64,000 bases of DNA, taken from the NCBI GenBank assembly GCA_963662545.2, contig CAXXLL010000003.1, forward strand, positions 352,001 through 416,000. Direction: 5' to 3'. The DNA comes from Gammaproteobacteria bacterium (GTDB lineage Bacteria > Pseudomonadota > Gammaproteobacteria > Ga0077536). Shown here piece by piece: positions 258-19,631 of the stretch. How positions within the stretch are numbered: position 1 is the stretch's first letter; every line of letters begins with the position of its first letter. The notes under the pieces were generated by a model. That model had not been told where the DNA came from. It made no database searches and saw only the letters and a program-made list of their open reading frames with translations. A program made the translations under genes and the position numbers.

Positions 258-785
258 TCAGGTCAGTCGAGGTCAACAAGAATGCGCCCTTCAGCCAACG
301 TCATCGACCTACCCCAACCACCGTTTTCGGGAAAGTTACCCCGGAAACCCAGAAACAAGGATGTCAGGTCACGCGAATACTTAACGCCTGACGAAGTTGC
401 GCAACTAATGCTGGCTGCCGGCAGGGTCGGTCGGCATCCGTTCCGAGACAAGACGCTCATCCTGATTGCTTACCGCCATGCCCTGCGGGTATCCGAATTG
501 GTGTCTCTCCGCTGGGACCAAATCGACCTGAAACAGGGTCAACTACACGCCGTAAGGATGAAGGGTGGGATTGACTCCACACACCCGCTTAGAGGGCCAG
601 AATTGCGCGCTCTTAAACGCTTACAGCGCGAGTATGAGAAGTCCCCGTATGTGTTCGTGACAGAGCGCAGAGGACCTCTGACGACGTCTGCTGTGCGGAA
701 GATTATCGCGAGGGCGGGGGAAGTTGCCGAGCTGGGATTTCCGGTTCATCCGCATATGCTCAGACATGCATGTGGCTTCTACCTA

Positions 786-2482
786 GTGTGCATCCCTAAA
801 CGCGATGCGGTTGAAATAAAAAGGAAAATTTGTCGCTTAAGGGATCGAAACCTCCGGTAGGTCGTGATCTAATGGAACTTCAAACCTCTGATTTTCCACA
901 CAATCATCGACACCACAGGAGGGGGAATGCGTCAGAAACGCACGGCCCAAGCGAGTATATACGAGCTGTTTGCTGACCATGACCTGGGGCGAGAGCTGCA
1001 GGGCATGTCCGAGTGGCTCGATGCTCACCCCAAGGTCCTCACGCCGGTCATGAACGATCTGTGTCGGCGGGGTTTGAAGCCCACCGGTCGACGCGGACTG
1101 TCGGCGGAGTCGGTGCTGCGCTGCGCGGTGCTCAAGCAGCACCGGCAATTGAGTTACGAGGAGCTGGCCTTTCACCTGCAGGACTCGGCGAGCTTTCAGG
1201 CCTTCGCCCGGTTGCCGGGTAATGAACGTCCGAAGAAGTCTGCCTTACAGCGGGTGGTCTCGGCGATCCAGGTATCGACGTGGGAGTCTATTCATCGCGC
1301 CCTGCTGGCGACGGCGAAAGAGACGCGCATTGAGCCGGCACAGCGTGTACGGATTGATAGCACGGTAACGGACAGTGCCATCCACGCGCCGAGCGACAGT
1401 CATCTGCTGTGGGATGGCGTGCGTGTTGTGGTTCGTCTGCTCGCACAGGCGCGCGAGTTGCCTGGCGCGCCGGAGTTGTGCTTCGTGAACCACACTCGAT
1501 TGGCGAAGAAGCGTGCGCGGGCGCTGTGGTATGCGCGTGGTGCGAAGCAACGCCAACGTCTGTATCGCGATTTGATTGGGGCGACGCGTTCAACCTTGGA
1601 AGCGGTAGCGAGGGTACGTGAGCAGCTGCTGAGCCCGGGCGTCACCGGCGTTGAACTGCCGGACTGGCTAGCGCAGGTAGCGCACTACGAAACACTTGTT
1701 CTGCAGGTGATTTCGCAAACTGAGCGGCGGGTGTTCGGCGGTGAGAAGGTCCCCGCGAGCGAGAAGTGCGTGAGCTTGTTCGAGCCGCATACCGACATCA
1801 TCATAAAGGGTGCGCGCGACGTTCAGTACGGACACAAAATCAATCTGGCTTCGGGGCGCAGTGGCCTCATCCTCGACGTGGTCATCGAGCGAGGCAATCC
1901 GGTCGATAGTCAGCGCTTCATGCCGATGCTCGAACGGCATCGAACACACTACGGAACGATGCCACGACAGGTCGCCGCCGATGGCGGCTATGCGAGCCTC
2001 GACAATCTCCGGGCGGCGAAAGCAGAAGGCATCGAAGACGTTGCCTTCCACAAGAAGCGCGGGCTCGCGATCGCCGACATGGTCAAGAGTCAGTGGGTCT
2101 ATCGACGCTTGCGCAACTTCCGCGCCGGCATCGAGGCCGGTATCTCCTGCCTGAAGCGTGCATACGGATTGGCACGTTGCACCTGGAAGAGCCTGCCGCA
2201 CTTCGAAGCCTACGTGTGGTCTTCTGTGGTCGCCTACAACCTCAGCCTGCTCGCGCGCTATCAACTCGAATAGCGACGTTCACTCGCACTAACTGACCTC
2301 CTCGATATCGTCGAACGGGCGACTTTGGGTTGCAGCGCTCTGCGGCCGGCGAACGTACTCACAATTACGCTCGAAGAGCCCTTCGACCCCCACCGAACCG
2401 CCGCTACCGCTCCAACAACCTACTTTCAACACCTCGATTTCTCCGTGCCCATCGAAGAAAATGCCTGTTTATGGACGGACAC
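786..2482 (+). mobile_element. ISNCY/IS5-like insertion sequence with 6-bp TSD TACCTA
   Basis: Ends GTGTGCATCCCTAAAC / GTTTATGGACGGACAC are imperfect IRs. TACCTA at 780-785 and 2483-2488. Confidence 0.9.
927..2273 (+). CDS. DDE transposase (ISNCY/IS5-like)
   Basis: 448 aa with RIDSTV, AADGGY and RAGIEAGISCLKR DDE-type motifs. Confidence 0.9.
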   Translation: MRQKRTAQASIYELFADHDLGRELQGMSEWLDAHPKVLTPVMNDLCRRGLKPTGRRGLSAESVLRCAVLKQHRQLSYEELAFHLQDSASFQAFARLPGNERPKKSALQRVVSAIQVSTWESIHRALLATAKETRIEPAQRVRIDSTVTDSAIHAPSDSHLLWDGVRVVVRLLAQARELPGAPELCFVNHTRLAKKRARALWYARGAKQRQRLYRDLIGATRSTLEAVARVREQLLSPGVTGVELPDWLAQVAHYETLVLQVISQTERRVFGGEKVPASEKCVSLFEPHTDIIIKGARDVQYGHKINLASGRSGLILDVVIERGNPVDSQRFMPMLERHRTHYGTMPRQVAADGGYASLDNLRAAKAEGIEDVAFHKKRGLAIADMVKSQWVYRRLRNFRAGIEAGISCLKRAYGLARCTWKSLPHFEAYVWSSVVAYNLSLLARYQLE

Positions 2483-2585
2483 TACCTAGCCAATGAAGGA
2501 CACGATACGCGAGCGATTCAGATGTATCTGGGCCACTCGAACATTCAGCACACGACCCGGTATACGGAACTGGCGGCGAACCGGT

Positions 2586-2837
2586 TTAATGGGTTTTGGA
2601 AGGATTAAACCAGCGCTCCCGATCGTCGCTCTGAAGCTCGGGCGCTGCCACCGCCTCCTTAATCTTCGCCCGCCATTCAGCCAAGTCGTTTACCGCCTTG
2701 TCAGCCGTTTCCACGAGCAGCTTGGTCGGCACTTTGCCTCTCTTGGTGGACTTTATGAAGCCAGCCAGAGCTGCGGTGGCGTTGCCGAGGATTTTGTACA
2801 GATCGCGTAAGCCCGCGAGGTCGTCTTTTTCGTTCAT
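2586..2837 (-). CDS. Hypothetical protein
   Basis: 83-aa ATG ORF convergent on the recombinase; no recognisable motif. Confidence 0.4.
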   Translation of the reverse strand: MNEKDDLAGLRDLYKILGNATAALAGFIKSTKRGKVPTKLLVETADKAVNDLAEWRAKIKEAVAAPELQSDDRERWFNPSKTH

Positions 2838-2883
2838 ACGGCTAGTCTAGCTTGCATTCGGTTGGCCTCGAATCGCAACCCAA

Positions 2884-3027
2884 TAAGCCGCGTGTAGCAA
2901 AAGTCGCCGCTCGCCAGTGCCGCGTTGCCGAACGCTACTCGACGACCGCTTACGAGCGCATTGCAGACGTAATGCTTAGCGTTGTTGCAGTGCCGCGATT
3001 TGGCCGCTGACGACCCTAAACGGCCAT
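2884..3027 (+). repeat. Tripartite palindromic repeat, copy A
   Basis: Unit 2 acgaccgcttacgagcgcattgcagacgt (2942-2970); unit 3 ttggccgctga-cgaccc-taaacggccat (3000-3027); unit 1 degenerate. Confidence 0.85.
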
Positions 3028-3188
3028 CGGCGAAAATCGAATAACCAATCCTGACGGTTTCAAGTAGGGGAAATTTAACCCCGAGCGTAACGTCGCAATG
3101 CAAGACTTAATCCCATCGTTTAAGTCCTATGGACTGGGGAAAGGGTAGACCGCTGGAAAAGGGTTAAGCCGGTGTTTCAGGGGCCCTT

Positions 3189-3415
3189 TGTCAAGATTTT
3201 TTACACGCCGAGTTTCCCGGCCCGATTGGCGCTAAGCCTTTGTTGTTATTACGGTTCGTACCCAGATTACCCGGAAACCCCGGTGATTTGGCCCCGAAAT
3301 GGGTTGAAAAGTGTCAGTAATTTTTACAAATCCCGGTATTTTTACGGCGTCATGCTAGGGCGTATGGCCTAACCCCTTGAAAGCACTTTAATTATTTTTT
3401 TGGCATGAAACCTGC
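3189..3415 (+). promoter_or_regulatory. Sigma-54 promoter with two TGT-N11-ACA enhancer boxes (PrsR-type PEP-CTERM control region)
   Basis: TGT-N11-ACA at 3189-3205 and 3312-3328; TGGCAT-N5-CTGC (GG-N10-GC) at 3401-3415. Confidence 0.75.
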
Positions 3416-3477
3416 GTCTTAACCAAGCGACGAGAGGCAATTGTTGCCCAATTTAGAAAACGACCGGAGCGTCTGAC

Positions 3478-4257
3478 ATGACCTCGTTCGCGGCCAACCC
3501 CGCGAAACCATTTCCCCCGGCCGCCATTCTGGTGGCGATTCTTCTTATAGGTGCCCCACCGTCCGCTCGAGGCGTGGTGTTGAATTTCGAGGGCTTGATG
3601 CTGCAGTTTCCAACTGGCAACGAAGGGCCGGTTCTAACGCCGTTCCTTACCGGGACGTATGGGTTTCGCTTAACATTGGACGAGCCAGAGCTCTTCCCAC
3701 AAGTCATTAACACGCCTGCTATGCAGGGCATCGTGCACGACATCGAGACCGCTCAGCTCGAAATTTTCCACAACGGCGTGCCCCTCATAATCGGGAGCCA
3801 GGACGTTCACGCCGCAGACGACGGTGTATCGGCCCAGATCTTCTATGACTACAATAATCCCGGAGAAGGCTTCAACGGCCCCCTCGATTTGATCTTAGTG
3901 CAAGGCATCATACCCAGCGGCTCGTTACTGACGGACAATTTATTTGAAGCGGTAACTCTAGAGATTTTCATGACGTTGTTCCCCATGGACGAGTTAGACG
4001 CTTCCGCACGTGAATTGCCTACCCTGATACCGCCATCACAATTCAACGTGGTTACTATGACTATTCACTACCAGATATTATCTGTAAGCCCCCAAGCAGT
4101 GGTGACCCATGAAATTATCCGCGTGGATGGGTTTCAGGGAACCGGTTTCGGCCCGGTGACTAGCCTCACGCTACAAACCATCCCTGAACCCACCGCCCTT
4201 GCCCTTATGGGATTAGCACTCGCAGGATTGGGTTTCCAAAGGCGTAAAGCAGCGTAA
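3478..4257 (+). CDS. PEP-CTERM sorting domain protein
   Basis: N-terminal signal-like segment; C-terminus IPEPTALALMGLALAGLGFQRRKAA. Confidence 0.9.
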   Translation: MTSFAANPAKPFPPAAILVAILLIGAPPSARGVVLNFEGLMLQFPTGNEGPVLTPFLTGTYGFRLTLDEPELFPQVINTPAMQGIVHDIETAQLEIFHNGVPLIIGSQDVHAADDGVSAQIFYDYNNPGEGFNGPLDLILVQGIIPSGSLLTDNLFEAVTLEIFMTLFPMDELDASARELPTLIPPSQFNVVTMTIHYQILSVSPQAVVTHEIIRVDGFQGTGFGPVTSLTLQTIPEPTALALMGLALAGLGFQRRKAA

Positions 4258-4281
4258 CCGCTCTCAATAATCTAACATCAG

Positions 4282-4309
4282 GAAGCCTGCTTCGGCGGGT
4301 TTCTTTTTT
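4282..4309 (+). terminator. Rho-independent terminator
   Basis: gaagcctgc-ttcg-gcgggtttc followed by a T-run. Confidence 0.8.
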
Positions 4310-4317
4310 GGCGCGCC

Positions 4318-4462
4318 AGGTCCGCAGTTGGCCGAGACCCGCCCTGCTCAGCTAACGCTCCACTGAAAGCCACTGGATGACCGCTTCCGAGCGCATTGCA
4401 GACGTAACGTTTAATCGTGCTGCACTGCCGCGATAAGGCCGCTGACGACCCACAGCGGACAT
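4318..4462 (+). repeat. Tripartite palindromic repeat, copy B
   Basis: Units at 4318-4345, 4377-4405 and 4435-4462 (period 59/58 bp). Confidence 0.9.
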
Positions 4463-5323
4463 GGCTATCGGAGCGGCAGTGAAGGGAATGCCACTGTCAA
4501 GCGTCCGCCTCCAACGACCCGTTATGCTGCATTATGAATGCACAGTGACCCCATTTCTGTTCAATTATTCTACGATCCTTTTCTATGTTCGGCGGACCTG
4601 GCGGAACTTCATTGTCGAGCGCCGTGAACATTTGAGCAGCTATGCTCCCGGAGCCTGTTATTTCCAGCATTTCGCCGCCATCGCCGTATTTGAACGCATG
4701 TATCGTTCCACCCGGCACAAAAACAAGTGTGCCTGGTGTGCACAGTTCGGTCCTTCCATCACAGGTGATTTCAACGCTTCCTTTAATCACGAAAAATGAT
4801 TCATCCCAGTCGTGGCTATGAGGCGGAGGTCCCATGCCTTTGTCTCCGGACTGATACGTAAATTCCTGTCCCTGTGTTTCTTGTTTTGAAGCGAGCACGG
4901 CTATCGGAGCGGCAGTGAAGGGAATGCCACTGTCAAGCGTCCGCCTCCAACGACCCGTTATGCTGCATTATGAATGCACAGTGCATTACTTCTACGATCT
5001 TTTCTATGTTCGGCGGACCTGGCGGAACTTCATTGTCGAGCGCCGTGAACATTTGAGCAGCTATGCTCCCGGAGCCTGTTATTTCCAGCATTTCGCCGCC
5101 ATCGGGGCCGTATTTGAACGCATGTATCGTTCCACCCGGCACAAAAACAAGTGTGCCTGGTGTGCACAGTTCGGTCCTTCCATCACAGGTGATTTCAACG
5201 CTTCCTTTAATCACGAAAAATGATTCATCCCAGTCGTGGCTATGAGGCGGAGGTCCCATGCCTTTGTCTCCGGACTGATACGTAAATTCCTGTCCCTGTG
5301 TTTCTTGTTTTGAAGCGAGCACG
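4463..5323. repeat. ~430-bp tandem duplication of the 3' part of a cupin gene plus half attC
   Basis: 4463-4898 is repeated at 4899-5323 with small indels. Confidence 0.9.
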
Positions 5324-5397
5324 GTTACGTCAGTGCCTACGACGTTCAACGCGGATTTATAAGTCTCCGGTTTGATAATAAGCGGGGCTCTACTCAT
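4933..5397 (-). CDS. Cupin domain protein (integron-type cassette; 3' end disturbed by indels)
   Basis: GPPPHSHDWDESFFV...GTIHAF cupin motifs; GGAGGA RBS before ATG 5397. A 5'-truncated copy lies at 4497-4898. Confidence 0.85.
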   Translation of the reverse strand: MSRAPLIIKPETYKSALNVVGTDVTVLASKQETQGQEFTYQSGDKGMGPPPHSHDWDESFFVIKGSVEITCDGRTELCTPGTLVFVPGGTIHAFKYGPDGGEMLEITGSGSIAAQMFTALDNEVPPGPPNIEKIVEVMHCAFIMQHNGSLEADA

Positions 5398-5435
5398 GGG
5401 ATTACTCCTCCGACGGTGTAGATGGGCCGGTTGCG

Positions 5436-5489
5436 GCATAACGCTAGGATAACCTGCTGTAACACGTCAGGATGATCCGTTTGTTAGGT
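5436..5489 (-). other. attC site (short 59-be type)
   Basis: Minus strand ACCTAAC...GTTATGC with internal dyad (ggatcatcctg/caggttatcc). Confidence 0.75.
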
Positions 5490-5491
5490 GG

Positions 5492-6581
5492 CCCGGATTC
5501 ACAATGTAAGTGCAACACAAGAATTTCCCTATATCGCGTTAAACGAAGCGAGCTGGGATACTCGTAAGCACTCTCTTCTTGGCAGAATAGGAAACTTACG
5601 ATGAGTTATCACCAGCTCACCTCTGGAGAGAGGTATATGCTTCACACCTTGAAAATGCAAGGCTGTAAAAACGCAGAGGTCGCTCGAAAACTCGGGCGAC
5701 ATCGGTCTACGATCGGACGCGAACTAAAGCGTAATCGCCGCATCGGTCGGTATCGTCCTGACGAAGCTGAGGAGATGACCCGAGGCAGGCGAACGAAGTC
5801 TCGCCGACGATGGTATTTCACCGACCAACAACTCAGTCTCGCCATTCGCTTGCTGCGCGAGGAATGGAGCCCCCAGCAAGTCTCGGATTGGTTCAAGCGT
5901 CATCGGATATTTTCAATCAGTCACCAGACCCTATACCGGTATATCTGGTACGACCACTTCTTCGGCGGCACCTTATATAAGCATCTGCGACAGGCGGAAA
6001 AACGACGACGGAAACGCTACGGCAGCGGTGATTCTCGCGGTGTTATGCGAGGAAAGCGCCATATCACCGAACGACCACCAGGCGCTGAAAACCGTTCCCG
6101 CATCGGTCATTGGGAAATAGACACCGTCATCGGTAGCCACGACGGTCACTGCATCGTGACCCTCGTTGAACGTAAGACACGATATACCTTAATCGGAAAA
6201 CTTCGGGCTCGCACGACCGCCGAACTCAACCGCAAAGTGATCCAACTTATCAAACGTGAAATGCGCTTGGTGCGAACCGTAACCGCCGATAATGGAACTG
6301 AGTTTCATCAGTTCCAGAAGATAGAAAACGCGACCGACGCTCGCTTCTATTTTTGTACGCCATATCATTCCTGGGAACGCGGTACCAATGAAAATACCAA
6401 CGGCCTTATTCGACAGTACCTGCCCAAAGGGAAAACCATGGCAGACGTTACACAACGTGACTGCGATAAGATAGCGAAGAAACTCAACACACGTCCGCGA
6501 AGGGTTCTCGGCGTCAAAACACCGGAGGAATGTTATGCAGCAGTTTAATCACCCCTGTTGCACTTCACTTGGACATCTGGG
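5492..6581 (+). mobile_element. IS30-family insertion sequence, probable 3-bp TSD TGG
   Basis: ~26-bp imperfect IRs sharing AAGTGCAACA; tgg at 5489-5491 and 6582-6584. Confidence 0.85.
5601..6548 (+). CDS. IS30-family transposase
   Basis: HTH (LGRHRSTIGRELKRN), GHWEIDTV, TADNGTEF, WERGTNENTNGLIRQYLPK. Confidence 0.95.
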   Translation: MSYHQLTSGERYMLHTLKMQGCKNAEVARKLGRHRSTIGRELKRNRRIGRYRPDEAEEMTRGRRTKSRRRWYFTDQQLSLAIRLLREEWSPQQVSDWFKRHRIFSISHQTLYRYIWYDHFFGGTLYKHLRQAEKRRRKRYGSGDSRGVMRGKRHITERPPGAENRSRIGHWEIDTVIGSHDGHCIVTLVERKTRYTLIGKLRARTTAELNRKVIQLIKREMRLVRTVTADNGTEFHQFQKIENATDARFYFCTPYHSWERGTNENTNGLIRQYLPKGKTMADVTQRDCDKIAKKLNTRPRRVLGVKTPEECYAAV

Positions 6582-6606
6582 TGGATGATGCATTTCAAAT
6601 GTGAAC

Positions 6607-7038
6607 TCAGGCCCCTTCGGCTAGCTGCCGCTCGTAACAAGCAGCATCGTAGTAGCCACGAGACTGTGCGATCAGGCCTGATTCGCCCATCTCCCAAACC
6701 TCGACTCCGCTCACGCGAACGGAATTTCCCGTGCCGCCCGGTCCTGTGTTGGTCCCAGTGAGCGTCCATACAAAGAACGCAGCATTACCTGCGACGAGAA
6801 GCTGATCAAGACTGATTTGTAAGTCGGGAAAAGCTTCCATGTAGCTACTTGCTACAGCTGCTAGCGCCGTGCGTCCAATGGCGGGTGGTCCGTCGTTTAT
6901 CGATTGTCGTCCGACTTCCTCGTAGCACGAGGCCATTCCCTCCGGATCGTGCGAAGACCACGCACTCGCACACCGAATCGCGAGATCCCATAGTGCTTGG
7001 GATGGGGCCGTCGAACCTGGCGTCGAGGCTAATTGCAT
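6607..7038 (-). CDS. SnoaL/NTF2-like ester cyclase family protein (cassette)
   Basis: AFPDL, WTLTGTNTGPGGTG..VRVSG motifs; GGAGG RBS; core site GTTAGGC upstream at ~7101-7107 on the minus strand. Confidence 0.85.
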   Translation of the reverse strand: MQLASTPGSTAPSQALWDLAIRCASAWSSHDPEGMASCYEEVGRQSINDGPPAIGRTALAAVASSYMEAFPDLQISLDQLLVAGNAAFFVWTLTGTNTGPGGTGNSVRVSGVEVWEMGESGLIAQSRGYYDAACYERQLAEGA

Positions 7039-7194
7039 TACCGTTTCCTCCGGTTTTTTGCTTTAACGAAAATGTGTCCTTATTTGGGAACTGTATAGAG
7101 GCCTAACATTAAATGGTCGCTACAATGACGCGATTAATCGAATCATTGTGACGCATAATAATCGGTGCAGACATAGCTGTGGTTACGGTAGCCG

Positions 7195-7339
7195 GGGATG
7201 GCTCTTGGCCGACTGCAGCCGTGCTCCCTCCACTCGGTTCTTGAAGCAACTGGACGACCGCTATGAAGGGGAATACAGACGTAATCTAGAGCGGTGTTGC
7301 GATGCGACGATGAGGCCGCTGACGACCCACAGCGGACCT
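7195..7339 (+). repeat. Tripartite palindromic repeat, copy C
   Basis: tggccg-actgcagccgt ... gaccgctatgaagggg..cagacgt ... ggccgctga-cgaccc-acagcggacct. Confidence 0.9.
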
Positions 7340-7469
7340 CCACAAATCCGGAACCGCTATGCCCGTCCGACGACGAGAACCAAGTTTTCAATCGCTCTTG
7401 TCAGTTGATTATCGATTCCCGGACGGGTTACGGTTCCGTTACCTTAAGAAAATATGGAGAGAGCACTTA

Positions 7470-8414
7470 ATGTCGTTGCCCTCCTTGCCAGAAGTAACTC
7501 GTATTTACCAGAACACGTTCTTCGACAGCACGCGCTGGGACGGTTTCAAACCGCGCGACGGTGACATCATCATCTCGACGTCGTACAAAGGCGGCACGAC
7601 CTGGACACAGGCAATCTGCGGGGCGCTTATTTTTCAATCACCGGACCCTCCTGCACCGCTGGACGAACTCTCACCGTGGATCGACTCAATGTACCATCCC
7701 ATTGAGGACGTCCTCGACCGCGTCGAAACGATGACCTACCGCCGTTACGTCAAGACGCATTTACCGCTCACGGCAGTGCCCTATTACGACAATGTCCATT
7801 ACATCTTCGTCGGTCGTGACGGGCGCGACGTGTGGATGTCGCTGTGGAATCACTTCCGCAACATGAAACCGGAGGTGGTGCAGGCGTTGAACGATAATCC
7901 TCTACGCAAAGGACCCGAGGTGCCGCCGGTTGCCACAGACATTAACGAGGGGTTCGATGAGTGGATGTCGAAATCCCTATACCCCTGGGAACGCGACGGC
8001 TATCCGGCATGGTCACTCCATAATCACGCACAAACGTGGTGGAACTACCGGCACCTCGACAATATCCTGTGTGTTCATTTCGCCGATATGCTCGATGATC
8101 TGAACGGTCAGATGCGCCGCATTGCCGCGTATCTCGACATACCGGTAAACGAGGACGTCTGGCCGGCGCTCGTGCAGTCGGTCACATTCGATGAGATGAA
8201 GCGCAACTTCGCTACGCGCGCACCGGGCAGCAGTAGGGGGGTGTGGAAAGACACTAAGAATTTCTTTCACAAGGGCACCAATCGTCGCTGGGAAGGCGTG
8301 TTGAGCGCTGATCAGATCAGGCGGTATGAATCGCTTATTACAGAGCTGATGGAACCGAATTTGGTGCGCTGGCTTGTGCACGACGACGGGTTCATCGATC
8401 CAAAATCCTTATAG
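7470..8414 (+). CDS. Sulfotransferase domain protein
   Basis: PAPS-binding SYKGGTTW, KTHLP, RDGRDV..S and FFHKG..RW; likely start ATG 7470 after GGAGA. Confidence 0.9.
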   Translation: MSLPSLPEVTRIYQNTFFDSTRWDGFKPRDGDIIISTSYKGGTTWTQAICGALIFQSPDPPAPLDELSPWIDSMYHPIEDVLDRVETMTYRRYVKTHLPLTAVPYYDNVHYIFVGRDGRDVWMSLWNHFRNMKPEVVQALNDNPLRKGPEVPPVATDINEGFDEWMSKSLYPWERDGYPAWSLHNHAQTWWNYRHLDNILCVHFADMLDDLNGQMRRIAAYLDIPVNEDVWPALVQSVTFDEMKRNFATRAPGSSRGVWKDTKNFFHKGTNRRWEGVLSADQIRRYESLITELMEPNLVRWLVHDDGFIDPKSL

Positions 8415-8519
8415 CAGGCGACGGCGTTTGGCGTCGATAACGCCACCACCATCTGTTTCCCGTGAGCAACCATGAGACAACCGCTTTTATTCTTCTTATA
8501 CGTCCGCGATCAGGGCCGC

Positions 8520-8666
8520 CTGGTCGGAGATTCACCACAAATGCCCTTGTTCTCGAATAAACACCCGCTCATCGGTGCGCTGGGAATGATCGATCCCGAC
8601 TCTCTGACCCCGATCGAAGCGCTCGAAACTCTCTTCCGGTTGCGGTCCTTACTCGACGACGAATGA
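8520..8666 (+). pseudogene. mutS: 3' remnant of mutS (C-terminal tetramerisation tail only)
   Basis: PQMPLF...IDPDSLTPIEALETLFRLRSL resembles the MutS C-terminus; it lies directly before fdxA, as in the known mutS-fdxA order. Confidence 0.7.
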
Positions 8667-8742
8667 CCATCTTTCTTGTTGGGCTCGGGCGAGGCCGCCG
8701 TTATACTGCACTGCTTTTTCATCAGTCACGAAGTGCTGAGAC

Positions 8743-9066
8743 ATGACATTTGTTGTTGTTGAAAGTTGTATCAAGTGCAAGCTCACGGACTGCGTGGAGG
8801 TATGTCCCGTCGATTGCTTTCACGAAGGTCCGAACATGCTGGTCATCGATCCGGATGAATGTATCGATTGCACCTTGTGCGAACCCGAATGTCCGGTCGA
8901 CGCCATCAAATCCGAGGACGATCTCACCGACGACGAGCAGCACTTCCTGGCCTTGAACACGGAACTTTCCGCCGAGTGGCCCGTGATCAGTGAGATGAAG
9001 GACCCGCCGCCCGATGCGGATGAGTGGAGGGACAAAACCGATAAGCTGCAATACCTCGAACGTTGA
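8743..9066 (+). CDS. fdxA: 7Fe ferredoxin (Azotobacter FdI type)
   Basis: [46 protein letters not shown]. Confidence 0.95.
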
Positions 9067-9159
9067 ACAATGCCCGTCCACAAGCTCGGCTCTGAAGCGG
9101 ACCCATTCCGACTGCACGAGAACCGCCAGCGCTTTTGAACCGGCCATGTAGTGTGCTCG

Positions 9160-9615
9160 TTACAGCCTGTTCCGCACTGGGGCTGAAATGGCGCTCGATA
9201 ATGGGCAGTTGTTTCGGGTGTATGGCGCCTTTGCCGGTCATGCCGAGTTCTGTGCATCGTGCGGCCTCGCGTTCGAGGCCATCCATGTCCTCGAGGTCGA
9301 GCCACGGTACGTCGATGAGATCGACCTGGGCTTCGGCGGTTGCATGGACAAGACGCGAGCGCGCGTACAGCAGGGCATCCCAGGTCGGCGCAACGCGCAA
9401 CTCCGCAGCCATGTCGGTACCGCCGAACAGCAGTGCGTCGACGCGCGCGCTCGCCCTCGCAATCTCGTGGCAGGCTTTGAGCCCCTGATTTGTTTCGACG
9501 ATAAGCTGCAACCGAGTAGCCGCCCCCACACTGGTCAGCAGTTCATCGAGCAGGCGTACTTCATCCGGCGATTTGATCTTGGGTAGCACCAACCCGGGCG
9601 GCGGTGCGTCCGTTC
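9160..9615 (-). pseudogene. CitE/HpcH-HpaI aldolase-citrate lyase beta family fragment, truncated at both ends
   Basis: LVLPKI, IVETNQG, LLFGGTDMAAEL, GMTGKGAIHPKQ; the flanking ORF parts are non-homologous. Confidence 0.75.
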
Positions 9616-9744
9616 GTATAACCTGATATTTAGACGCCCCGCCCAACGCACTCATAAACTTTGAATTCGACGGGAGGACAGCGCCGGGCCATTTTTTGAT
9701 ACGCTGCATTTTCCGAACCGCGTTCGCGCAAGATTGTTCCGACC

Positions 9745-9972
9745 ATGGCTGATCTCCTACTCGATACCAAGGGACTCAACTGCCCCTTACCGATCCTCAA
9801 GACCAAGCGATCGATGAAAGACGTACCCGTCGGAGGGACCATCGAGATCCTCGCCACCGATCCGGCGGCTGACGCGGACTTTCAGGCATTTTGCCGCGCT
9901 ACGGGGCACGAATTGGTCGAGTCTTCGCAGGAGGGCGACGTCTACCGGTTTCTAATCAGACGGGCTAAGTGA
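9745..9972 (+). CDS. tusA: TusA/SirA-family sulfur carrier
   Basis: LDTKGLNCPLPILKTK, ATDPAA..DF..FC. Confidence 0.9.
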   Translation: MADLLLDTKGLNCPLPILKTKRSMKDVPVGGTIEILATDPAADADFQAFCRATGHELVESSQEGDVYRFLIRRAK

Positions 9973-9990
9973 ATGACTGAATTAACCTAG

Positions 9991-10225
9991 CAGGCTGTTG
10001 AAAAAGTCGAACTTTCCCACCGATTGACGATCAGATCGTGTAGGTCAGAGTAACGGGGAGCAACCCGATGCGCGGAGTCGATGATCGTCAAGACAGGATG
10101 TTCAGTTACATCTCGCTGGAGGCGAGAGTGCCGGAAAACCATCCGTTGCGGCCGATCCGCACGATGTTCGATGAGGCGCTAGCGAAGCTGACGGCGAAAT
10201 TTGACACGATGTACGCCGACGGCGA
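9991..10225 (+). mobile_element. Truncated IS5-family element (left end and transposase N-terminus)
   Basis: CTAG followed by CAGGCTGTTGAAAAAGTC end; MRG.D..Q..MFSYISLE.RVP..HPLR.IR, then homology stops. Confidence 0.75.
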
Positions 10226-10295
10226 GCTCGACGTTGTATTGGGCGTCGATCTCGTCCTGGGTCGTGAACCGGCGATAAAGCATCGCGTAAATCAA

Positions 10296-10323
10296 GAGGT
10301 CAGAGTCAATTGACTCTGACCCC
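10296..10323. repeat. 28-bp palindrome GAGGTCAGAGTCAATTGACTCTGACCCC (REP-like)
   Basis: Seen directly; partner copy at 11322-11349. Confidence 0.8.
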
Positions 10324-10346
10324 TCGCCGGACAATCTCCCGGCCAA

Positions 10347-11273
10347 TCAGTAGCGCGGCACGCCGGGATCGATCTTCTGCGACCAGGCGTCGATGCCGCC
10401 CGCGAGGTTATGCGCGTTGCTATAACCATTGCGACTGAAAAAATCGGCCGCGGACTGGCTGCGCATACCGGTATGGCAGTGGAAGACGAGCAGCGCATCC
10501 TTCGCCAGTGAATCGATGAATTTCCGCGCCTCTTCGTCCAGCAGACGTGAGCCTTCGATCATGGCGCGTTCGCGTTCGTCTTTTTCACGCACGTCGAACA
10601 GGTGCACCGGTTCGCCCGCATCCATCTTCGCCTTGAGCTCCTCGACTGACATCTGCGCGGCGGGCGCCGGTGCGTTCGGGTTTTTGATGCTCATGCTCAT
10701 GCCCTGCGGCGTTTCCGTCATGTCGATCACGAGTCCGTCGGCGCGCCGCGCCGAGTCGACGTCCAGCAGGAGCTCGATGCCATTCGTGGTAACGCCAACC
10801 TCGTGGCCTTTCGCGGGGGCCAGACTGAATTCATGGTTCCAGTCGGCGTCGATACTGAGGTGCACCGGGACGCCCGGAGTCTCAGCCATCACGTTGCGGA
10901 TCGCCCTCGCCGCGGTGTCGCTGATGGTGATCTCCGGCGTGACGAGTTCGACCGGTTCCACGCCCAGCGCTTGGTGCAATTGGCCGGTGGTGTACATCTG
11001 CTGAATCACGTCGCAGCCGCCGAGGAATTCCTGATCCACGTAGAGCTGCGGTATCGTCGGCCATTGCGAATATTCCTTGATACCCTCCCTGATCTCCTGA
11101 TCCGCCAGGACATCGACCGTATCGTAATCGGGCGCCACATTGTTCAGAATGCTGATGACGGTGGCCGAGAAGCCGCATTGCGGCTGCTGCGGGGTGCCCT
11201 TCATAAAGAGCACGATTTTGTTCGACGCGATGGTCGAATCGAGGCGGGAGCGAAGCTCGTCGGTGAGCGGCAT
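10347..11273 (-). CDS. grxD: Monothiol glutaredoxin (CGFS) fused to a HesB-like domain and a rhodanese domain
   Basis: FMKGTP.QPQCGFS and WPTIPQLY; middle PEITISDTAA segment; C-terminal DVRE..E, CHTGMRS, LAGGIDAWS..IDP.VPRY. Confidence 0.9.
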   Translation of the reverse strand: MPLTDELRSRLDSTIASNKIVLFMKGTPQQPQCGFSATVISILNNVAPDYDTVDVLADQEIREGIKEYSQWPTIPQLYVDQEFLGGCDVIQQMYTTGQLHQALGVEPVELVTPEITISDTAARAIRNVMAETPGVPVHLSIDADWNHEFSLAPAKGHEVGVTTNGIELLLDVDSARRADGLVIDMTETPQGMSMSIKNPNAPAPAAQMSVEELKAKMDAGEPVHLFDVREKDERERAMIEGSRLLDEEARKFIDSLAKDALLVFHCHTGMRSQSAADFFSRNGYSNAHNLAGGIDAWSQKIDPGVPRY

Positions 11274-11321
11274 GGTCAACTCTTTGATGACGTTCGAGAC
11301 TGTACACAGTGTATAAAACAG

Positions 11322-11349
11322 GGGGTCAGAGTCAATTGACGCTGACCCC
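11322..11349. repeat. 28-bp palindrome GGGGTCAGAGTCAATTGACGCTGACCCC (REP-like)
   Basis: Seen directly; partner copy at 10296-10323. Confidence 0.8.
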
Positions 11350-11368
11350 ACACCCGGAGAAACTTCCC

Positions 11369-11830
11369 ATGCGACTCATTGCGGCGATGATCATCGTGCA
11401 ACTGGCCCTTGGCTCGCTGGCCTTTGCCGTTGAAAGCCCGGAGGAACGCGCGGAAGCACTGTCGTCCTTCGCCGAGTTTACCGTACCGCAAACCGGTGGT
11501 CCGCATCCGCTTGCGATCCTGATGCCCGGATGCCTCGGCTGGCACCCGCATCACGAACGATGGCGGGACGACTTGTTGAGTCGCGGGTTCGCCGTCCTGC
11601 AGGTCGACAGTTTCGGCGCGCGGGGTGTCGACGATCGCGCGGTCATGGAACGGGACATCTGCACGGGACGGCGCATCCCCGGATCCGAGCGCGCGGGGGA
11701 TCTCATGGCCGTGCTGCGGAGATCTGGGAGCGCCTCGACGTGCGGGCGGACCGGACGATCCTGATGGGCTGGTCCACGGCGGCTGGAGCGCGATGGATTT
11801 CATGATCCTAGCCGAAACCGCAACATCGAA
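11369..11830 (+). pseudogene. Dienelactone-hydrolase-like alpha/beta hydrolase, frameshifted and truncated
   Basis: Signal peptide, ILMPGCLG and GFAVLQVDSF; the ILMGWS/HGGWSAM nucleophile motif is split across frames near 11720 and 11775. Confidence 0.7.
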
Positions 11831-11866
11831 GCCGTCAACCCGCGAAGAGCGGCGAGGACGCGGCGC

Positions 11867-12268
11867 TTAAGAACCGCTGCCGCCGCAGCCGCTGCACATG
11901 CCGCTGCCGCCTACACTCTCAAAGACATTGTTAAAGACAAAGGACTCATTGAGGCCGTCCTTGACGTAGTCGATTTCGCAGCCCCGTAGGAAGTTCAGGG
12001 CGACGGCATCCACCACCAGCTGGAAGCCCTCACGCTGAAGGACACAGTCGTACTCGGTCCGCCCGTCAACGTAGGTCATCCCATAGCTGAGCCCATTGCA
12101 TCCGCCACCCTCAACAAAGATACGCAGGGCAGTGAACTCCGCCTCGGCCTCCTCCATGATGTTCGCGAGCTGCGCTTCGCAAGCGGGCGTAATCGTTATG
12201 GTTTGCGCGGTGATCGCCTGCGGATATTCGGACCTCGATTCTTGCAACACGGTCTTGAACCTCACTCA
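11867..12268 (-). CDS. HesB/IscA/ErpA-family A-type Fe-S carrier
   Basis: LRIFVEGGGCNGLSYG, VVDAVALNFLRGCEIDYV; atypical C-terminus GGSGMCSGCGG. Confidence 0.85.
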
Positions 12269-12361
12269 TTCAACTGCAATAATTAGATAAAATAATTCTT
12301 GAGTATTTTACTCAACTATTATAGCTCGGTCGACCTCACCCCGCCTCGAAGCCCACTAGCC

Positions 12362-12646
12362 ATGGCACGCTCCGTTAATTGCCCGATCCTGCAGCGCGAG
12401 GCCGAGGGCCTCGACGCACCTCCGTACCCCGGCACTTTGGGGACGCGCATCTATGAGGAAATTTCCAAGGAAGGATGGCAGCAGTGGCTAGAGCGGCTCA
12501 CCATGATCATGAATGAGAACGGGTTGAGCACGGCAGATCCGGACGCTTTACCTCTCATTGAAGATCACATGCGGGGATTCCTCTTCGGAGAAGGCGATCT
12601 CGGCGGTCTACCGCCGGGATTCGTCCCCCAGGGCCAGAAAAAGTAA
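12362..12646 (+). CDS. yggX: Fe(II)-trafficking / oxidative damage protection protein
   Basis: MAR.V.C..L.REAEGLD.PPYPG.LG.RIYE.ISKE.WQQW. Confidence 0.9.
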   Translation: MARSVNCPILQREAEGLDAPPYPGTLGTRIYEEISKEGWQQWLERLTMIMNENGLSTADPDALPLIEDHMRGFLFGEGDLGGLPPGFVPQGQKK

Positions 12647-12717
12647 CCAGCGCAGCGGAACGATTTCCGCAGTTCCGCTGTTGGCATCTCCGGTCGCGGG
12701 CGGAAGTGCTTTGGCGG

Positions 12718-14109
12718 TTATAGTTCAGCGAACTGCTCGTCCGTCGGCTCAGCGCAACAATACCAAGGCTCACTCAACTCCGCCGATGGCGCGCGGTCGG
12801 CCATTATCGGCAGGGGCGGCGTCGGCCGATCCAGGTACGCATGGGTAAGCGCCCAGATCTCCCTGAATAATTGCTCGCGCGGCTTCCCTGCGGCTTGCTG
12901 TACCACCCGCTGAATTTCAACCTGCAGTTCGTCTACCTTGGGGTCGGCACTGGACCACGGATAAACGAGTGCCGCCTGCTCGAGCGGGCCAACGCGATCG
13001 CGGATCTCCTGCAATTCCAGCAGCCGCGATCCGGGTGGGATCAACAGGCGGATGGCAAGCTGCACCGGCGCGACTGCGCCCACCAGACCGAGCTCGGTAA
13101 GCGCCACCAGCAGATCCTGGTAGCCCGTCAGTGTCGTCCAAGGCGTAAACGCGACGAAAGTCGGCGAGAGCGTCAGCCCCAGTTCATCGAAAATGCGCAC
13201 CACCCGGTAGAAATCCTCGCGGGTGTGGCCTTTGTCCAAGCGGGCGAGGATCTGATCATCAACCGACTCGACGGCCGTGGTGACGAAAAGACACCCTGTG
13301 CGTTTCAATATCGGCAGCAGCCGGCCGTGCGCGAGCAGGTGCTCGACCTTGATGGTTACGTCATAAGTCAACTGCGGGAATTGCTCATGTAGCGCCTCGA
13401 CGATACGCACAGCGTGGGTCGGCCCGTTGAAGAAATCCGGATCGCCGAAGGTAATATGGCGTGCGCCCGCCATCACTTGCTGGCGAAGGTCGGCCAGCAC
13501 GATCTCGCGCGGCACGGCGCGAAAGCGTCCGTTATACACCGGAACCACCGGACAGTGCCGGCAGCGGTGCTTGCAGCCCCGACTGGCCTCGACGTAGCCG
13601 GTAACCCGCGTCTCGCCGTTGGGCATCCGCAGAAATGCATAGCGGTCGAGCGCCGGAAGGTCGCTACGGTCCGGTACCAGAAATCGCTGCCCGGCCAGGG
13701 AGATCCGCGGTTCCAGTTGCTCGCCGGTCTTACAGGACACGCCGGATTCGAGCCGTTCGGCGAGTGCCATGAGTCCCGCCTCGAACTCGCCCCCCAGTAC
13801 CGTCCCGACACCGAGTTCCCGAAGGTACGCTTCGTTCGTCGGCGCATAAAGACCATAGGCGGCGATATGCGCGCGTGGGTTGAGGTGCTTCACCCGGGGG
13901 ATCAGCCGGGCGGCAAGCCGGGTCGCCGTGTGCATCGGCACATAGAAAGCCGCTAAGTCAGCTTTGCGAACAAGGTCTTCGTCCCAGCTCTCCACTGCCA
14001 GATCCAAGGTCCACACTGAATCGCCGCGCTCCCGCAAGCACGCAGCAGGCTCCGCCAGACCAAACGGTTGGTGGCCGAGTTCATAGGTGGAAATGAGGAC
14101 GACGTTCAA
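12718..14109 (-). CDS. CUAEP/CCAEP-tail radical SAM protein (B12-binding-like N-terminus)
   Basis: ISTYELGHQPFGLA; SRGCKHRCRHCP (CxxxCxxC); C-terminal EPWYCCAEP. Confidence 0.9.
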   Translation of the reverse strand: MNVVLISTYELGHQPFGLAEPAACLRERGDSVWTLDLAVESWDEDLVRKADLAAFYVPMHTATRLAARLIPRVKHLNPRAHIAAYGLYAPTNEAYLRELGVGTVLGGEFEAGLMALAERLESGVSCKTGEQLEPRISLAGQRFLVPDRSDLPALDRYAFLRMPNGETRVTGYVEASRGCKHRCRHCPVVPVYNGRFRAVPREIVLADLRQQVMAGARHITFGDPDFFNGPTHAVRIVEALHEQFPQLTYDVTIKVEHLLAHGRLLPILKRTGCLFVTTAVESVDDQILARLDKGHTREDFYRVVRIFDELGLTLSPTFVAFTPWTTLTGYQDLLVALTELGLVGAVAPVQLAIRLLIPPGSRLLELQEIRDRVGPLEQAALVYPWSSADPKVDELQVEIQRVVQQAAGKPREQLFREIWALTHAYLDRPTPPLPIMADRAPSAELSEPWYCCAEPTDEQFAEL

Positions 14110-14203
14110 TCCCGACTCAACTTGTCAAACATGGAGCGGCGATTCTATTTCCGTGGGGGCGGATAACTGAGACGTGGGCCCAAAGTAAACCTCAATCGGC
14201 AGT

Positions 14204-14518
14204 CTATTCTTCCACTTCAATTTCGATTTCGTCGCCCGACAAACGGACATTATATTTGCTGACATCATCGCTCGCTGGGGCGAGAGTAACCTTCCCGGAT
14301 CTGATGTTGAAATGCGCACCGTGCCACGGACATTCGATCTCGTCACCTTCGATATTCCCCTGACTGAGGGCCCCACCTCGGTGCGTACAGGTGTCATCAA
14401 TGGCGAAGAACTCATCACCAAGCTTAAATAGGGCGACCTTCTTCCCCGCCACCTCTACGCATTTGGCCGGTTGGTTGTCGAAATCGGAAAGTTTAGCTAC
14501 GGGGACAAAATTTGACAT
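14204..14518 (-). CDS. Rieske-type [2Fe-2S] ferredoxin (dioxygenase ferredoxin/Suf-associated type)
   Basis: CTH...CPWHG Rieske motifs. Confidence 0.92.
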   Translation of the reverse strand: MSNFVPVAKLSDFDNQPAKCVEVAGKKVALFKLGDEFFAIDDTCTHRGGALSQGNIEGDEIECPWHGAHFNIRSGKVTLAPASDDVSKYNVRLSGDEIEIEVEE

Positions 14519-14996
14519 GGTCACGCTCCGTTCCCGAATGCCTACGTGCAACCGATCTTTAGATTTTCACGGATCACAAGCCATCGGGCGTCTGTTACAA
14601 GTATAGAATCTGCAAATCCCGATGCCAACTGGAGTGAATCTCTGACTTCGCCCAGAGGACGGGATCGCAGTGTGTGTTGCAGTGGACGTTGTCGCAGCGC
14701 AGAACACAGGAAAGCCGCGTGTCCTCCTACGTTTCTTGCTTAGACCACGCAATAGCGGTCATGCATTCCAAGCTCAATAATGCTAACGAGTTTTTTATCG
14801 TCGCTGAACAAACTGCCCATCCAGGTGGTGTAGATCCGAAAATCATCAATCATTTTTACGCTCGATCGGGCGAACCCTGAAGGCGTAATATGGTCTTCAT
14901 CAACAATTTGGTTCGCCGCCACTGAACGGTATCATTTCCTCGGCGTCAACGGGTACGCGACGGCACTGGATCATCGTACCAAGGTGGTATCGAGCC

Positions 14997-15245
14997 TCAG
15001 TCGTTGAGGCCCGGCAGCGCTGCTTGTGGGGGTGCTCGAGCGGAAGGAATGCCGGACCGCGTCGGCTGCGCATCGCGCCGGTCAAGATGGTCGAGGATGC
15101 GTTGGATGACGGCGGGGTCTTCGATGCAGGCGATGATCCTGAGGTTGGCGCCGCAAGCATCGCAGATATCGAAGTCGATGTTGAACACGCGTTTCAAGCG
15201 CCTGGCCCAGGTCATGGCGGCGCGACGCTCGGCGGGCGGGCGTGA
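14997..15245 (-). pseudogene. C-terminal fragment of an IS91-like transposase
   Basis: MTWARRLKRVFNID..C..CG...RIIACIEDPAVI.RILDHL...RAPP. Confidence 0.8.
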
Positions 15246-15274
15246 CCTGGGCGCGCAGCGGGCTATTCGGCGCA

Positions 15275-15862
15275 AAGACGCCGTGGGTGGTCGTCGCCAA
15301 GCAGGTCGCGTCACTCGATGTTTTAAGTGGTGGCCGCGTTTTGTTCGGCGTAGGTGTGGGATGGCTGAAGGAAGAGTTTGAGGCACTCGGTGCGCCTTTC
15401 GAACGCCGGGGCCAACGTACCGACGAGTACATCGAAGCGATACGGGCATTGTGGACACAAGAAAAACCGACCTATAAAGGCGAGATCGTGAATTTCGAGA
15501 ATGCCTACTGCCGACCGCAACCCCGCCAGGCCCCGATCCCCATCATTATTGGCGGGCATTCGAAGGCCGCTGCCAGACGGGCAGGTCGCTTAGCCGATGG
15601 TTATTTTCCCGCGCGTGAAGCGCCAGCGGACCTGATAGAAGAGGCGCGCGCTGCGGCAGTTGCGCATGGCCGTGATCCGGCAGCAGTCGAATTCACAGCA
15701 AGCATGCCGAGCGATCCCGAACTGCTATCCGACTACGCGCGCTTGAGCGTGAACCGCGTGTTGGTGCCCGTCACGACCGTGACCGGTCTCGACAGTGGTA
15801 TAAAAAATCCTGATGACGTCCTTCAATGGAAGGATACGATTGAACGATTCGCTGATCTGTAG
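15275..15862 (+). pseudogene. 5'-truncated LLM-class (F420-dependent type) oxidoreductase
   Basis: AKQVASLDVLSGGR..FGVGVGWLKEEF, IGGHS.AAARRA; the N-terminus is replaced by the IS91 fragment. Confidence 0.8.
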
Positions 15863-15894
15863 ATAGCAGTGAGACCGGAGTAAGTTCCCGCCTT

Positions 15895-17115
15895 CTACGA
15901 ACCGTGAGGCTTTGGCAGGAGCGCGAACAGCACTAGTGCGCAGGCGGCGATAAGGACGCAGTAAAAAAAGGCGAGATGATAATCGCCGTGAACGTCTCGG
16001 AGGTATCCGGCGAGAGCAGGACCCCACGCGCCCAATATTCCGCCACCGGCAAATATGAACCCGCCGATCGTCCCCGCGTGGGCCGGCCCAAACAAGTCGC
16101 CCACAAGTGCCGGGAAGAGGGTTGCGATGCCGCCGTAGAAAAACCCGAAGGCCGCGGCGCCTAAGTAGAGCGTGGTTACGCTCTCGGCGTTGAGAAACAG
16201 GACGTAGGCCAGGACCTGGGAGGCCAACGCAAAAACCATCATGGCCTTGCGGCCGATTCGATCCGACACTGTGCCAAGAGAAACGCTCCCAATGAGCGCG
16301 AATAGACCCATGATGCTGAACGTCATCGCGCCGGCAATGTCGGACAAGCCGATGTCCTGTGCGAAACCGGCGATGTGCACGAACGGCACGGTGGTGGTGA
16401 GCATTCCGACCGCGAACGCCACCAGGAACACCCAGAACGATAATGTCGCAGCCGCCTCACGTAACGTCCAGCTAGTCGTATCATCGAGTGAGCCAGCGAT
16501 TGAGTCTTGCGCCGGTGCGCCGTCGCCGTCTGGCAATAAACCCATCCGTTTCGGATCGCTCACCATGAAACGGGCAACGACGCTTATTAGGACAAGCATG
16601 CCCGCTCCCAGCGTCAGCATGGCGGTGCGCCAATCCGTGAGATTGATGAGGAGCGAGGTAAACACCGGCACGACGAGGATCCCGCAACTCGCGCCGCAAG
16701 AAGCGACGCCCAAGGCGAGTCCGCGCTTACGGTGAAACCAGCGAACCACGGTCATATTGCAGGGAATGTAGGCTGTGCTCATACCGAGCGCGGCCACGAT
16801 GCCGTACCAAAAGAAGAGCTGCCACTGTGACGACATCTGGCTCGTCGCCATAATTCCTACCCCCAGCAAGACGGCGCCGAGACCCACGACCCGACGTGGT
16901 CCGAGTGAATCGGTGAGCTTTCCACTGAGCAGGCTGAACGTCGTGTACACGACGGTATAAAAAGAAAACGCTCCGCCCAGGCTCGCGCGCTGCCAACCCA
17001 GGTCATCCACCATGACCGGGACAAAGATGCCGAACGAATACTGCACGCCGTAGGTGAGGAAGAGCACCACGAAGGCACAACCGGTAACTATCCAACCATA
17101 GAAAAGAGGTTTCAT
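15895..17115 (-). CDS. MFS transporter (MCT/OFA-like)
   Basis: 406 aa, about 12 hydrophobic segments, GKLTDSLGPRR and SDRIGRK motifs. Confidence 0.92.
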   Translation of the reverse strand: MKPLFYGWIVTGCAFVVLFLTYGVQYSFGIFVPVMVDDLGWQRASLGGAFSFYTVVYTTFSLLSGKLTDSLGPRRVVGLGAVLLGVGIMATSQMSSQWQLFFWYGIVAALGMSTAYIPCNMTVVRWFHRKRGLALGVASCGASCGILVVPVFTSLLINLTDWRTAMLTLGAGMLVLISVVARFMVSDPKRMGLLPDGDGAPAQDSIAGSLDDTTSWTLREAAATLSFWVFLVAFAVGMLTTTVPFVHIAGFAQDIGLSDIAGAMTFSIMGLFALIGSVSLGTVSDRIGRKAMMVFALASQVLAYVLFLNAESVTTLYLGAAAFGFFYGGIATLFPALVGDLFGPAHAGTIGGFIFAGGGILGAWGPALAGYLRDVHGDYHLAFFYCVLIAACALVLFALLPKPHGS

Positions 17116-19606: not shown

Positions 19607-19631
19607 GAGCGGTCTCCCATTTTGTTTCGGT

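Follow-up and report, generated by a model that had tools for sequence, protein, structure and literature searches.

The stretch of DNA analysed here, 64,000 nucleotides long and called the window in what follows, raises the question of what is done by a 150-bp repeat that occurs in it ten times between positions 2883 and 27306, always on the + strand and with small groups of genes (modules) between the copies. The window belongs to a gammaproteobacterial genome (G000; 5.58 Mb, 58% G+C, three contigs including those called C2 and C3 below), which was compared with two genomes of the same genus (G001 and G002). One of the ten copies is split by a small insertion, and the copy at 4318–4462 (copy B) is the one considered most closely. 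With a probability of roughly one half, the repeat is the junction element of a site-specific module-exchange system that works on double-stranded DNA and resembles the pdif modules of plasmids in its logic. Heterospecific crossover sites bounding the modules fit the anatomy of the repeat and the edges of shared modules better than any of the rival explanations.

Anatomy, conservation and arrays of the repeat

The repeat is built of three units, each consisting of two 11-bp arms around a short spacer. In copy B, unit 1 (4318–4345) reads AGGTCCGCAGT-TGGCCG-AGACCCGCCCT, unit 2 (4377–4405) ATGACCGCTTC-CGAGCGC-ATTGCAGACGT and unit 3 (4435–4462) AAGGCCGCTGA-CGACCC-ACAGCGGACAT. An earlier note on this DNA had described three such 11-6/7-11 units at a 58–59-bp period, and both letters and coordinates proved correct, the unit starts lying 59 and 58 bp apart. 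The 11-6-11 layout of dif and pdif sites is that of units 1 and 3, the spacer of unit 2 being 7 bp long.

Conservation was calculated over 100 distinct near-full copies. The unit-3 spacer is CGACCC in 74 of them. The unit-1 spacer is TGGCCG in 38, with 14 further copies showing CGGCCG at junctions with miniature inverted-repeat transposable elements (MITEs), and its positions are 73–85% conserved. The unit-2 spacer is CGAGCGC in 25 copies and varies at two of its seven positions. The best-conserved parts are the arms of unit 2 (75–100% per position), the 3′ half of linker 2, which forms a 15-bp palindrome (GCAGTGC-T-GCACTGC), and the left arm of unit 3; the unit-2 arms and the unit-3 left arm surpass any spacer. 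The proposed picture of fixed spacers between drifting arms is right for units 1 and 3, and there on the module side only, whereas the unit-2 spacer is variable and the other arms are well conserved. In this larger alignment CGACCC and TGGCCG stayed nearly fixed, but the unit-2 spacer did not. Linker 1 is variable and falls into subtypes, as the note had it, while the conservation that it ascribed to linker 2 is confined to the 3′ half. Its reading of the arms as imperfect inverted repeats is correct in register but the signal is weak, with a Watson-Crick complementarity of 0.42, 0.53 and 0.39 in units 1, 2 and 3, against 0.09–0.40 over the 100 copies when the partner is slid by one to three columns. 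The perfect unit-3 palindrome CCGCT-N10-AGCGG lies in or near only six copies genome-wide, so the window holds the tidiest examples.

The mean pairwise identity of the copies is 62.5%, the longest identical run has a median of 13 nt and reaches at least 25 nt in 4% of pairs, and many positions are nevertheless 90–100% conserved. The core distance amounts to 0.34 between copies less than 12 kb apart, compared with 0.336 between arrays and 0.31–0.37 between species; linkage among segments of the repeat is about zero, the segments assorting nearly independently. Judged from these sequence comparisons, the copies are old and individually constrained, without homogenisation. Such low identity without homogenisation, combined with conserved positions, agrees with neither a recent burst of a selfish element nor exchange by RecA.

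The arms could act as double-stranded half-sites, as had been proposed, or as stems. In a 22-sequence alignment from three species the four proposed helices paired in 59.2% of cells, as against 59.3% after shuffling (290 of 500 shuffles reached the observed value), and the register was specific, pairing falling to 22–51% when the helices were slid. Arms that lack covariation but keep a specific register are conserved as sequence, as expected of protein half-sites, and the proposal of half-sites is thereby borne out. A closing stem is also absent: the complementarity of unit-1 left and unit-3 right arms is 0.40 within a copy, 0.43 within a module and 0.40 in random combinations. RNAalifold gave only a small 5-pair hairpin in linker 2 (−1.1 on the + strand, 0.0 on the − strand), an Rfam scan of the window at the gathering score returned three tRNAs and no match to the repeat, and a scan of 2800–21000 for sigma-70-like promoters and intrinsic terminators found none in the copies, with totals at or below the shuffled expectation.

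All this makes it very improbable that the repeat acts single-stranded, be it as a structured RNA or as attC-like folded DNA used by an integron integrase (IntI), even though units 1 and 3 of copy B could pair at 20 of 28 positions and the linker-2 palindrome varies with a G-T bias seen on the + strand only. There, 67 transitions keep a wobble pair and 22 break the pair, compared with 152 and 179 in the rest of the core, counted as sequences rather than as independent events. The genome does carry two IntI genes above the curated cut-off (C2:996723 and C3:1527239), but the nearest repeats are about 112 kb and 52 kb away, and the array of ten typical attC sites beside one of them (CCTAAC ... 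GTTAGG) is a covarying 105-bp repeat with nothing in common with the one described here. The core sites RYYYAAC ... GTTRRRY are present in that array and absent from the consensus of our repeat. A classical attC was accordingly rejected: the repeat has no attC core, no stem covariation and no IntI beside its arrays, and shares with attC sites only the co-oriented array.

An nhmmer profile made from nine window copies (E<=1e-3) gave 119 matches in G000, grouped in 17 distance-defined clusters. Nine of the 11 clusters with at least three matches are strand-uniform (39, 17, 11, 9, 9, 4, 3, 3 and 3 matches), and the other two consist of two opposite-strand blocks each (3+2 and 4+6). The repeat is real and far from chance. 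Successive copies follow each other at 131–21,804 bp (median 2,296 bp, 100 stretches in G000), and the longest open reading frame (ORF) between them runs with the repeat in 45 of 98 modules and against it in 50, three modules having none. Since genes face both ways in strand-uniform arrays, orientation is a property of the DNA array and not related to transcription.

The repeat could alternatively serve as a platform to which a non-cutting protein binds, for instance a silencer, an insulator or a partition-type protein belonging to acquired islands; the association with module borders would then be secondary. The strongest conservation, in unit 2, the linker-2 palindrome and the unit-3 left arm rather than in the presumed crossover arms, is consistent with such a platform, as are the lack of covariation and the 58–59-bp distance between units. 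However, this explanation accounts neither for strand-uniform arrays with genes on both strands, nor for module edges at unit spacers, nor for the repeat copy that comes with each new module, and we regard it as decidedly improbable.

The range of the repeat is narrow. BLAST found it in three of 41 relatives, namely G000 and the two other genomes of its genus, and the profile in all three genomes of the genus, with one marginal match (21 bits) among 78 other genomes of the family. A scan of a genome collection added four contigs of the same kind, and three of four contigs from a metagenome scan were real, all from this genus. Two public contigs (L025 and L026) that are 82–99% identical to G000 and carry the repeat are binned in metagenome-assembled genomes of Chloroflexota and Poribacteria, probably by mistake. 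The window stretch is partly present in 20 of the 21 sequencing runs listed, which are labelled as sponge metagenomes; in one RNA run 33 pieces fell on it, none of them centred on the repeat. G002 has an array after a tRNA-like sequence, in a place where G000 lacks one. The integron and pdif literature searched held no description of the repeat, which does not prove its absence from print.

Shared modules, their edges and insertions in the spacers

The modules of the window encode a PEP-CTERM protein, cupin, SnoaL, sulfotransferase, aldolase, glutaredoxin/rhodanese, Fe-S and radical-SAM proteins, an MFS transporter, a luciferase-like monooxygenase, a GFA protein and unknowns, and include IS30, IS3 and DDE_Tnp_1_4 elements. 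A 2.24-kb module is found in two G000 arrays with 95.7% identity and different neighbours; the homology begins 3–6 bases past the upstream CGACCC and continues to the last base before the next border. Other modules are shared between the window array and the C3:906k array, and between C2:1620k and C3:910k. In a 44-kb array of G001, consecutive modules match four different G000 arrays at 88–96% identity, and a metagenome contig unites two modules that are separated by 67 kb in G000. By these alignments, repeat-bounded modules recur among arrays and sister species with different neighbours.

Edges of homology were mapped on pairs of shared modules, leaving out those flanked by an insertion sequence (IS) or a MITE. 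The left edges fall at model columns 144, 150, 160 and 162 in four pairs and, by eye, at the unit-3 spacer in pairs a2 and e, and none extends into the upstream repeat copy. Three of the seven independent right edges are directly after the unit-1 spacer (columns 33 and 38, and pair b). Many more pairs break at column 33 only through a MITE placed there, and these were not counted; pairs e and i are without IS or MITE at the unit-1 edge in both partners. The earlier note had predicted modules bounded by CGACCC on the left and TGGCCG on the right, and this was confirmed at the left, where all edges are at the unit-3 spacer, but only in part at the right.

Unit 3, at the left of a module, and unit 1, at its right, are mutually inverted. 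In the exchange model that we favour, the anatomy, the arrays, the conserved positions, the shuffling of modules, the clustered edges and the insertions into the two spacers are observed; the action of a recombinase, the units that it cuts and the role of unit 2 are what we infer. Units 1 and 3 would be the crossover sites, inverted with respect to each other and carrying the different, near-fixed 6-bp spacers TGGCCG and CGACCC; given this difference, each of the two units should pair only with its own kind. The variable module would consist of the unit-3 right arm, the genes and the unit-1 left arm, alternating with a constant 105-bp core made of the unit-1 right arm, linker 1, unit 2, linker 2 and the unit-3 left arm, much as C and D modules alternate between pdif sites. 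A single crossover at unit 3 would move module and core together, in the fashion of an integron cassette, and a double crossover at units 3 and 1 would swap the module alone, with unit 2 and the linker-2 palindrome presumably binding accessory subunits or some other architectural protein. A module shared alone between different cores needs two exchanges, at unit 3 and at unit 1; a two-exchange route is proposed for the replacement of single dif modules in PMC13141974. RecA-dependent exchange between copies is a poor alternative because their identical runs are so short.

Both spacers are targets of mobile elements. One IS1182-family element, whose 478-aa transposase scored 466 bits (cut-off 270), inserts into the unit-3 spacer with GACC on both sides, as does a 160-bp MITE derived from it (Table 1), of which identical cases are found at 23806–23965 and 24731–24890. 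A second MITE of 146 bp lies in the unit-1 spacer with GGCC on both sides, the duplicated target being GACC or GGCC. An IS or MITE end is placed directly after the unit-3 spacer in 33 of the 100 copies and directly before the unit-1 spacer in 14, and 20 of 26 MITE matches are within 2 nt of a match to the repeat. Insertion into both spacers makes units 1 and 3 equivalent targets.

The repeat itself was not retained as a young MITE, nor is there much to suggest that a 125-bp core of it has transposed as a non-autonomous element with imperfect terminal inverted repeats into intergenic palindromes. The ends of this core are indeed inverted repeats at 10 of 15 positions and its flanks follow a loose palindromic consensus. 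On the other hand, the copies are far more divergent than the true MITEs of this genome (98–100% identical), no target is duplicated, TGGCCG and CGACCC consistently differ, the two arms that flank a given copy show no complementarity above the chance level, and strand-uniform clustering is not expected of a MITE. We consider a transposing core scarcely credible.

Some observations on particular modules can be added. A module with a 424-bp tandem duplication at 4463–5324 (two copies, 95% matches) has part of its cupin gene region doubled, and the unduplicated version is found at C3:906170–909220. After the cupin gene (4933–5439, − strand), a short attC-like site (GCATAAC ... GTTAGGT, 5425–5500) matches the outer parts of the true attC repeat of G000, so an integron cassette seems to be lodged in module 2. 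When G001 was compared with C2:711k, one module looked inverted, but the cause was an IS that had entered linker 2 and duplicated CTAG. This 1.16-kb IS, with the ends TGTGCTGTCCC...GGGACAGCACA, is seen in linker 2 of a repeat copy at C2:710862–712140, and in G001 in tandem and in opposite orientation. The insertion at 21283–21402 in the split copy of the window may be another small mobile element.

Search for a recombinase and weighing of the exchange model

The host dif site, located with an 11-nt motif at C2:2180011, reads GTTCGCATAA-TGTATA-TTATGTTAAAT and is canonical, with AT-rich inner arms. Comparison with the arms of the repeat gave nothing in common, and the name dif-like used in the earlier note applies to the layout but not to the sequence. 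All three genomes of the genus have XerC/XerD-like genes; with arms so unlike the host dif, XerC and XerD are unlikely partners. A second dif-like site (GGTGCGTATAA-CTCCTC-TTATGTCAAAC) is found at C3:9932 and C2:2590173, about 2 kb from an array end and near an IS91-type element with a tyrosine recombinase, both places being copies of one duplicated region. Every IS91-family element that comes with a partner tyrosine recombinase is located at an array end or close to one, with the repeats on the other strand; two of these elements are duplicates.

The product of the split tyrosine recombinase gene at the left of the window (282–2608) belongs to PF00589 and is closest to FimB/FimE-type models, below their cut-offs. 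Four copies or fragments of this gene exist in G000: one 270 bp before the window array, one 2.2 kb before the array at C3:1449925, one inside the C2:2569k array and one at C2:486760–487380, 42 kb from the nearest array. Three of the four are thus at most 2.5 kb from an array start or within an array. As a bolder version of the exchange model, the repeat might mark a third kind of gene-cassette platform in bacteria, one that depends neither on integron integrases nor on Xer and lets modules be exchanged directionally, and perhaps inverted as well, between about ten arrays of the chromosome, and its operator may be a small tyrosine invertase of the FimB/FimE type; we put this forward tentatively, as a possibility that we ourselves doubt. 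No shared site was seen downstream of the three invertase-like genes. A PEP-CTERM gene with a nearly identical C-terminal anchor follows two of these three (window 3478–4257; L020 2642–3271) and could encode a phase-variable surface protein, no shared inverted repeats being seen between the loci.

Several results weigh against an exchange system. The gene at 282–2608 had been named as a candidate partner, and this proposal was not supported: the gene, a candidate at most, was not found in G001 or G002 (E<=1e-20), both of which carry arrays. The 293–329-aa recombinases near array ends were rejected because they are the partner genes of IS91-family elements, and they were not found in G001 or G002 either. 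G002 has only two PF00589 matches, both XerC/XerD-like, and a search for serine recombinases (PF00239) gave a single broken gene in G000 and nothing in the other two genomes. No cognate recombinase is found among the candidates searched. These absences are weak evidence, because repeated and mobile DNA gets lost in draft genomes; completeness is 89% for G001 and 95% for G002, the latter with its 3.0 Mb in 150 contigs. As for the repeat, the module-side arms are loosely conserved (unit-1 left 35–72%, unit-3 right 40–80% per position), and the G-T-biased variation of the linker-2 palindrome hints at a single-stranded form that the model leaves unexplained. Four of the seven right edges lie away from the unit-1 spacer (columns 102, 112 and 132, and the unit-3 spacer in pair g), and at the right edge of pair b the G000 repeat copy is truncated. 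The edges counted are few, and close to unit 3 the conservation of this unit limits how finely they can be placed. IS or MITE insertions interrupt about half of the sites, and many arrays may be fossils. No product of recombination was seen directly. The contigs of four runs break at repeats, with joints from other copies, and no excised circle, empty site or joint was seen in them.

Some of these results are also what a passive intergenic repeat would give, with a structural or regulatory role and with shuffling by general homologous recombination or between IS and MITE copies in units 1 and 3. The right edges that fall within the repeat but not at the unit-1 spacer and the failure to identify a recombinase agree with it, as do the IS or MITEs at 47 of the 200 unit-1 and unit-3 positions and one junction (unit-1 left arm, MITE, unit-3 right arm) that resembles a deletion between two MITE copies. 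Copies of 62.5% identity would, however, be poor substrates for RecA, and neighbours are not homogenised. The left edges are all at unit 3, pairs e and i show breaks at unit 1 free of IS and MITEs, and strand-uniform arrays would have no explanation. On balance we hold a passive repeat to be rather unlikely.

An rve-type transposase first taken for an array-linked gene was discarded, as the 8-kb array flanks share only IS elements (tblastx).

Known systems compared and other features of the window

As described in PMC13141974, dif modules of Acinetobacter plasmids lie between pdif sites, with inversely oriented flanking sites, two alternating module types and pairing decided by spacer identity, and PMC10132070 reports IS elements that target pdif sites. 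The repeat shares with them the 11-6-11 layout, the inverted flanking sites, the alternation of two parts and the targeting by IS. It differs in its GC-rich arms (..CCGCT.. / ..AGCGG..), unlike the host dif, in its chromosomal location with about 100 copies, and in having two spacer classes rather than many; moreover, its second 'module type' would be a constant 105-bp core with a third unit of 7-bp spacer. Integrons, cassette arrays that lack an integrase included, resemble it in their strand-uniform arrays, imperfectly palindromic and IS-targeted repeats, and modules of mostly one or two genes that recur across arrays. Unlike them, it lacks the R''/R' core, stem covariation and an adjacent IntI, its genes run both ways, its median module measures 2.3 kb, and the integron of G000 itself uses another attC.

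The res sites of Tn3-family resolvases and cer/psi-type sites span about 120–150 bp and hold several dimer-binding subsites of varied spacing, only some of which are cut. The repeat is similar in size and in its several units with different spacings. A res site was rejected, no serine recombinase being encoded with the repeat; two of the three genomes gave none, about 100 arrayed copies stand against one per element, and crossover would apparently occur at two of three units. REP/BIME and REPIN elements with RAYT transposases are genus-specific, intergenic, palindrome-containing and chosen as targets by IS. Here, by contrast, the copies are not dispersed but gathered in strand-uniform arrays, without hairpin covariation, and the Y1 transposase genes are not flanked by repeats (of the seven Y1_Tnp matches in G000, six are outside arrays and the other is a fragment of 78 aa), so this class was rejected too.

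To our knowledge, bacteria have two known means of filing single genes as exchangeable units behind a short site for recombination, namely integrons and the dif modules that depend on Xer. G000 carries a classical integron plus about 100 modules behind a different, more complex site. If the exchange model is true, cassette-type gene storage would have arisen more than once, the known recombinase-site pairs would gain one whose heterospecific spacers are built in, following the same logic as cassette exchange by design, and the large pool of small accessory enzymes in an uncultured sponge symbiont would be explained.

Table 1. Coordinates of the repeat copies and associated features (window positions unless a contig is given)
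Feature	Position	Strand	Remarks
Invertase-type tyrosine recombinase gene	282–2608	+	pieces 282–785 and ~2486–2608; split by ISNCY-family IS, transposase 927–2273
Nine modules between repeats	3028–27161		genes on both strands
Repeat copy A, first of the array	2883–3027	+	unit 1 degenerate
Repeat copy B	4318–4462	+	linker 1 4346–4376; linker-2 palindrome 4414–4428
Repeat copy C	7195–7339	+	
Repeat copy D	17412–17556	+	unit 1 and unit-3 spacer degenerate
Repeat copy E, as far as unit-3 spacer	18837–18973	+	unit-3 right arm past MITE, from ~19130
MITE, 160 bp, IS1182-family derivative	18970–19129	+	in unit-3 spacer, GACC both sides
Repeat copy F	20479–20623	+	
Split repeat copy	21192–21467	+	~120–130-bp insertion after unit 2, bounded by direct repeat CAGACGTAAC
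Repeat copy H, as far as unit-3 spacer	23673–23809	+	then MITE
Repeat copy, as far as unit-3 spacer	24598–24734	+	then MITE
Last repeat copy of the array	27162–27306	+	IS66 downstream at 27718–29978
IS91-family elements at or near array ends	C2:613247–614128, C2:1616923–1617801, C3:6945–7814, C3:922410–923279, C2:623663–628538		

Beyond the array, a P4-type integrase (Arm-DNA-bind_3, Phage_int_M, Phage_integrase) at 44973–46758 adjoins two tRNA genes (46605–46758), and the left part of the window may as a whole form a single tRNA-linked island. At the other end, a very large ORF on the − strand (57375–63998, more than 2,200 aa, leaving the window) contains 315-bp tandem repeats (4.1 copies, 90% matches, with more copies).

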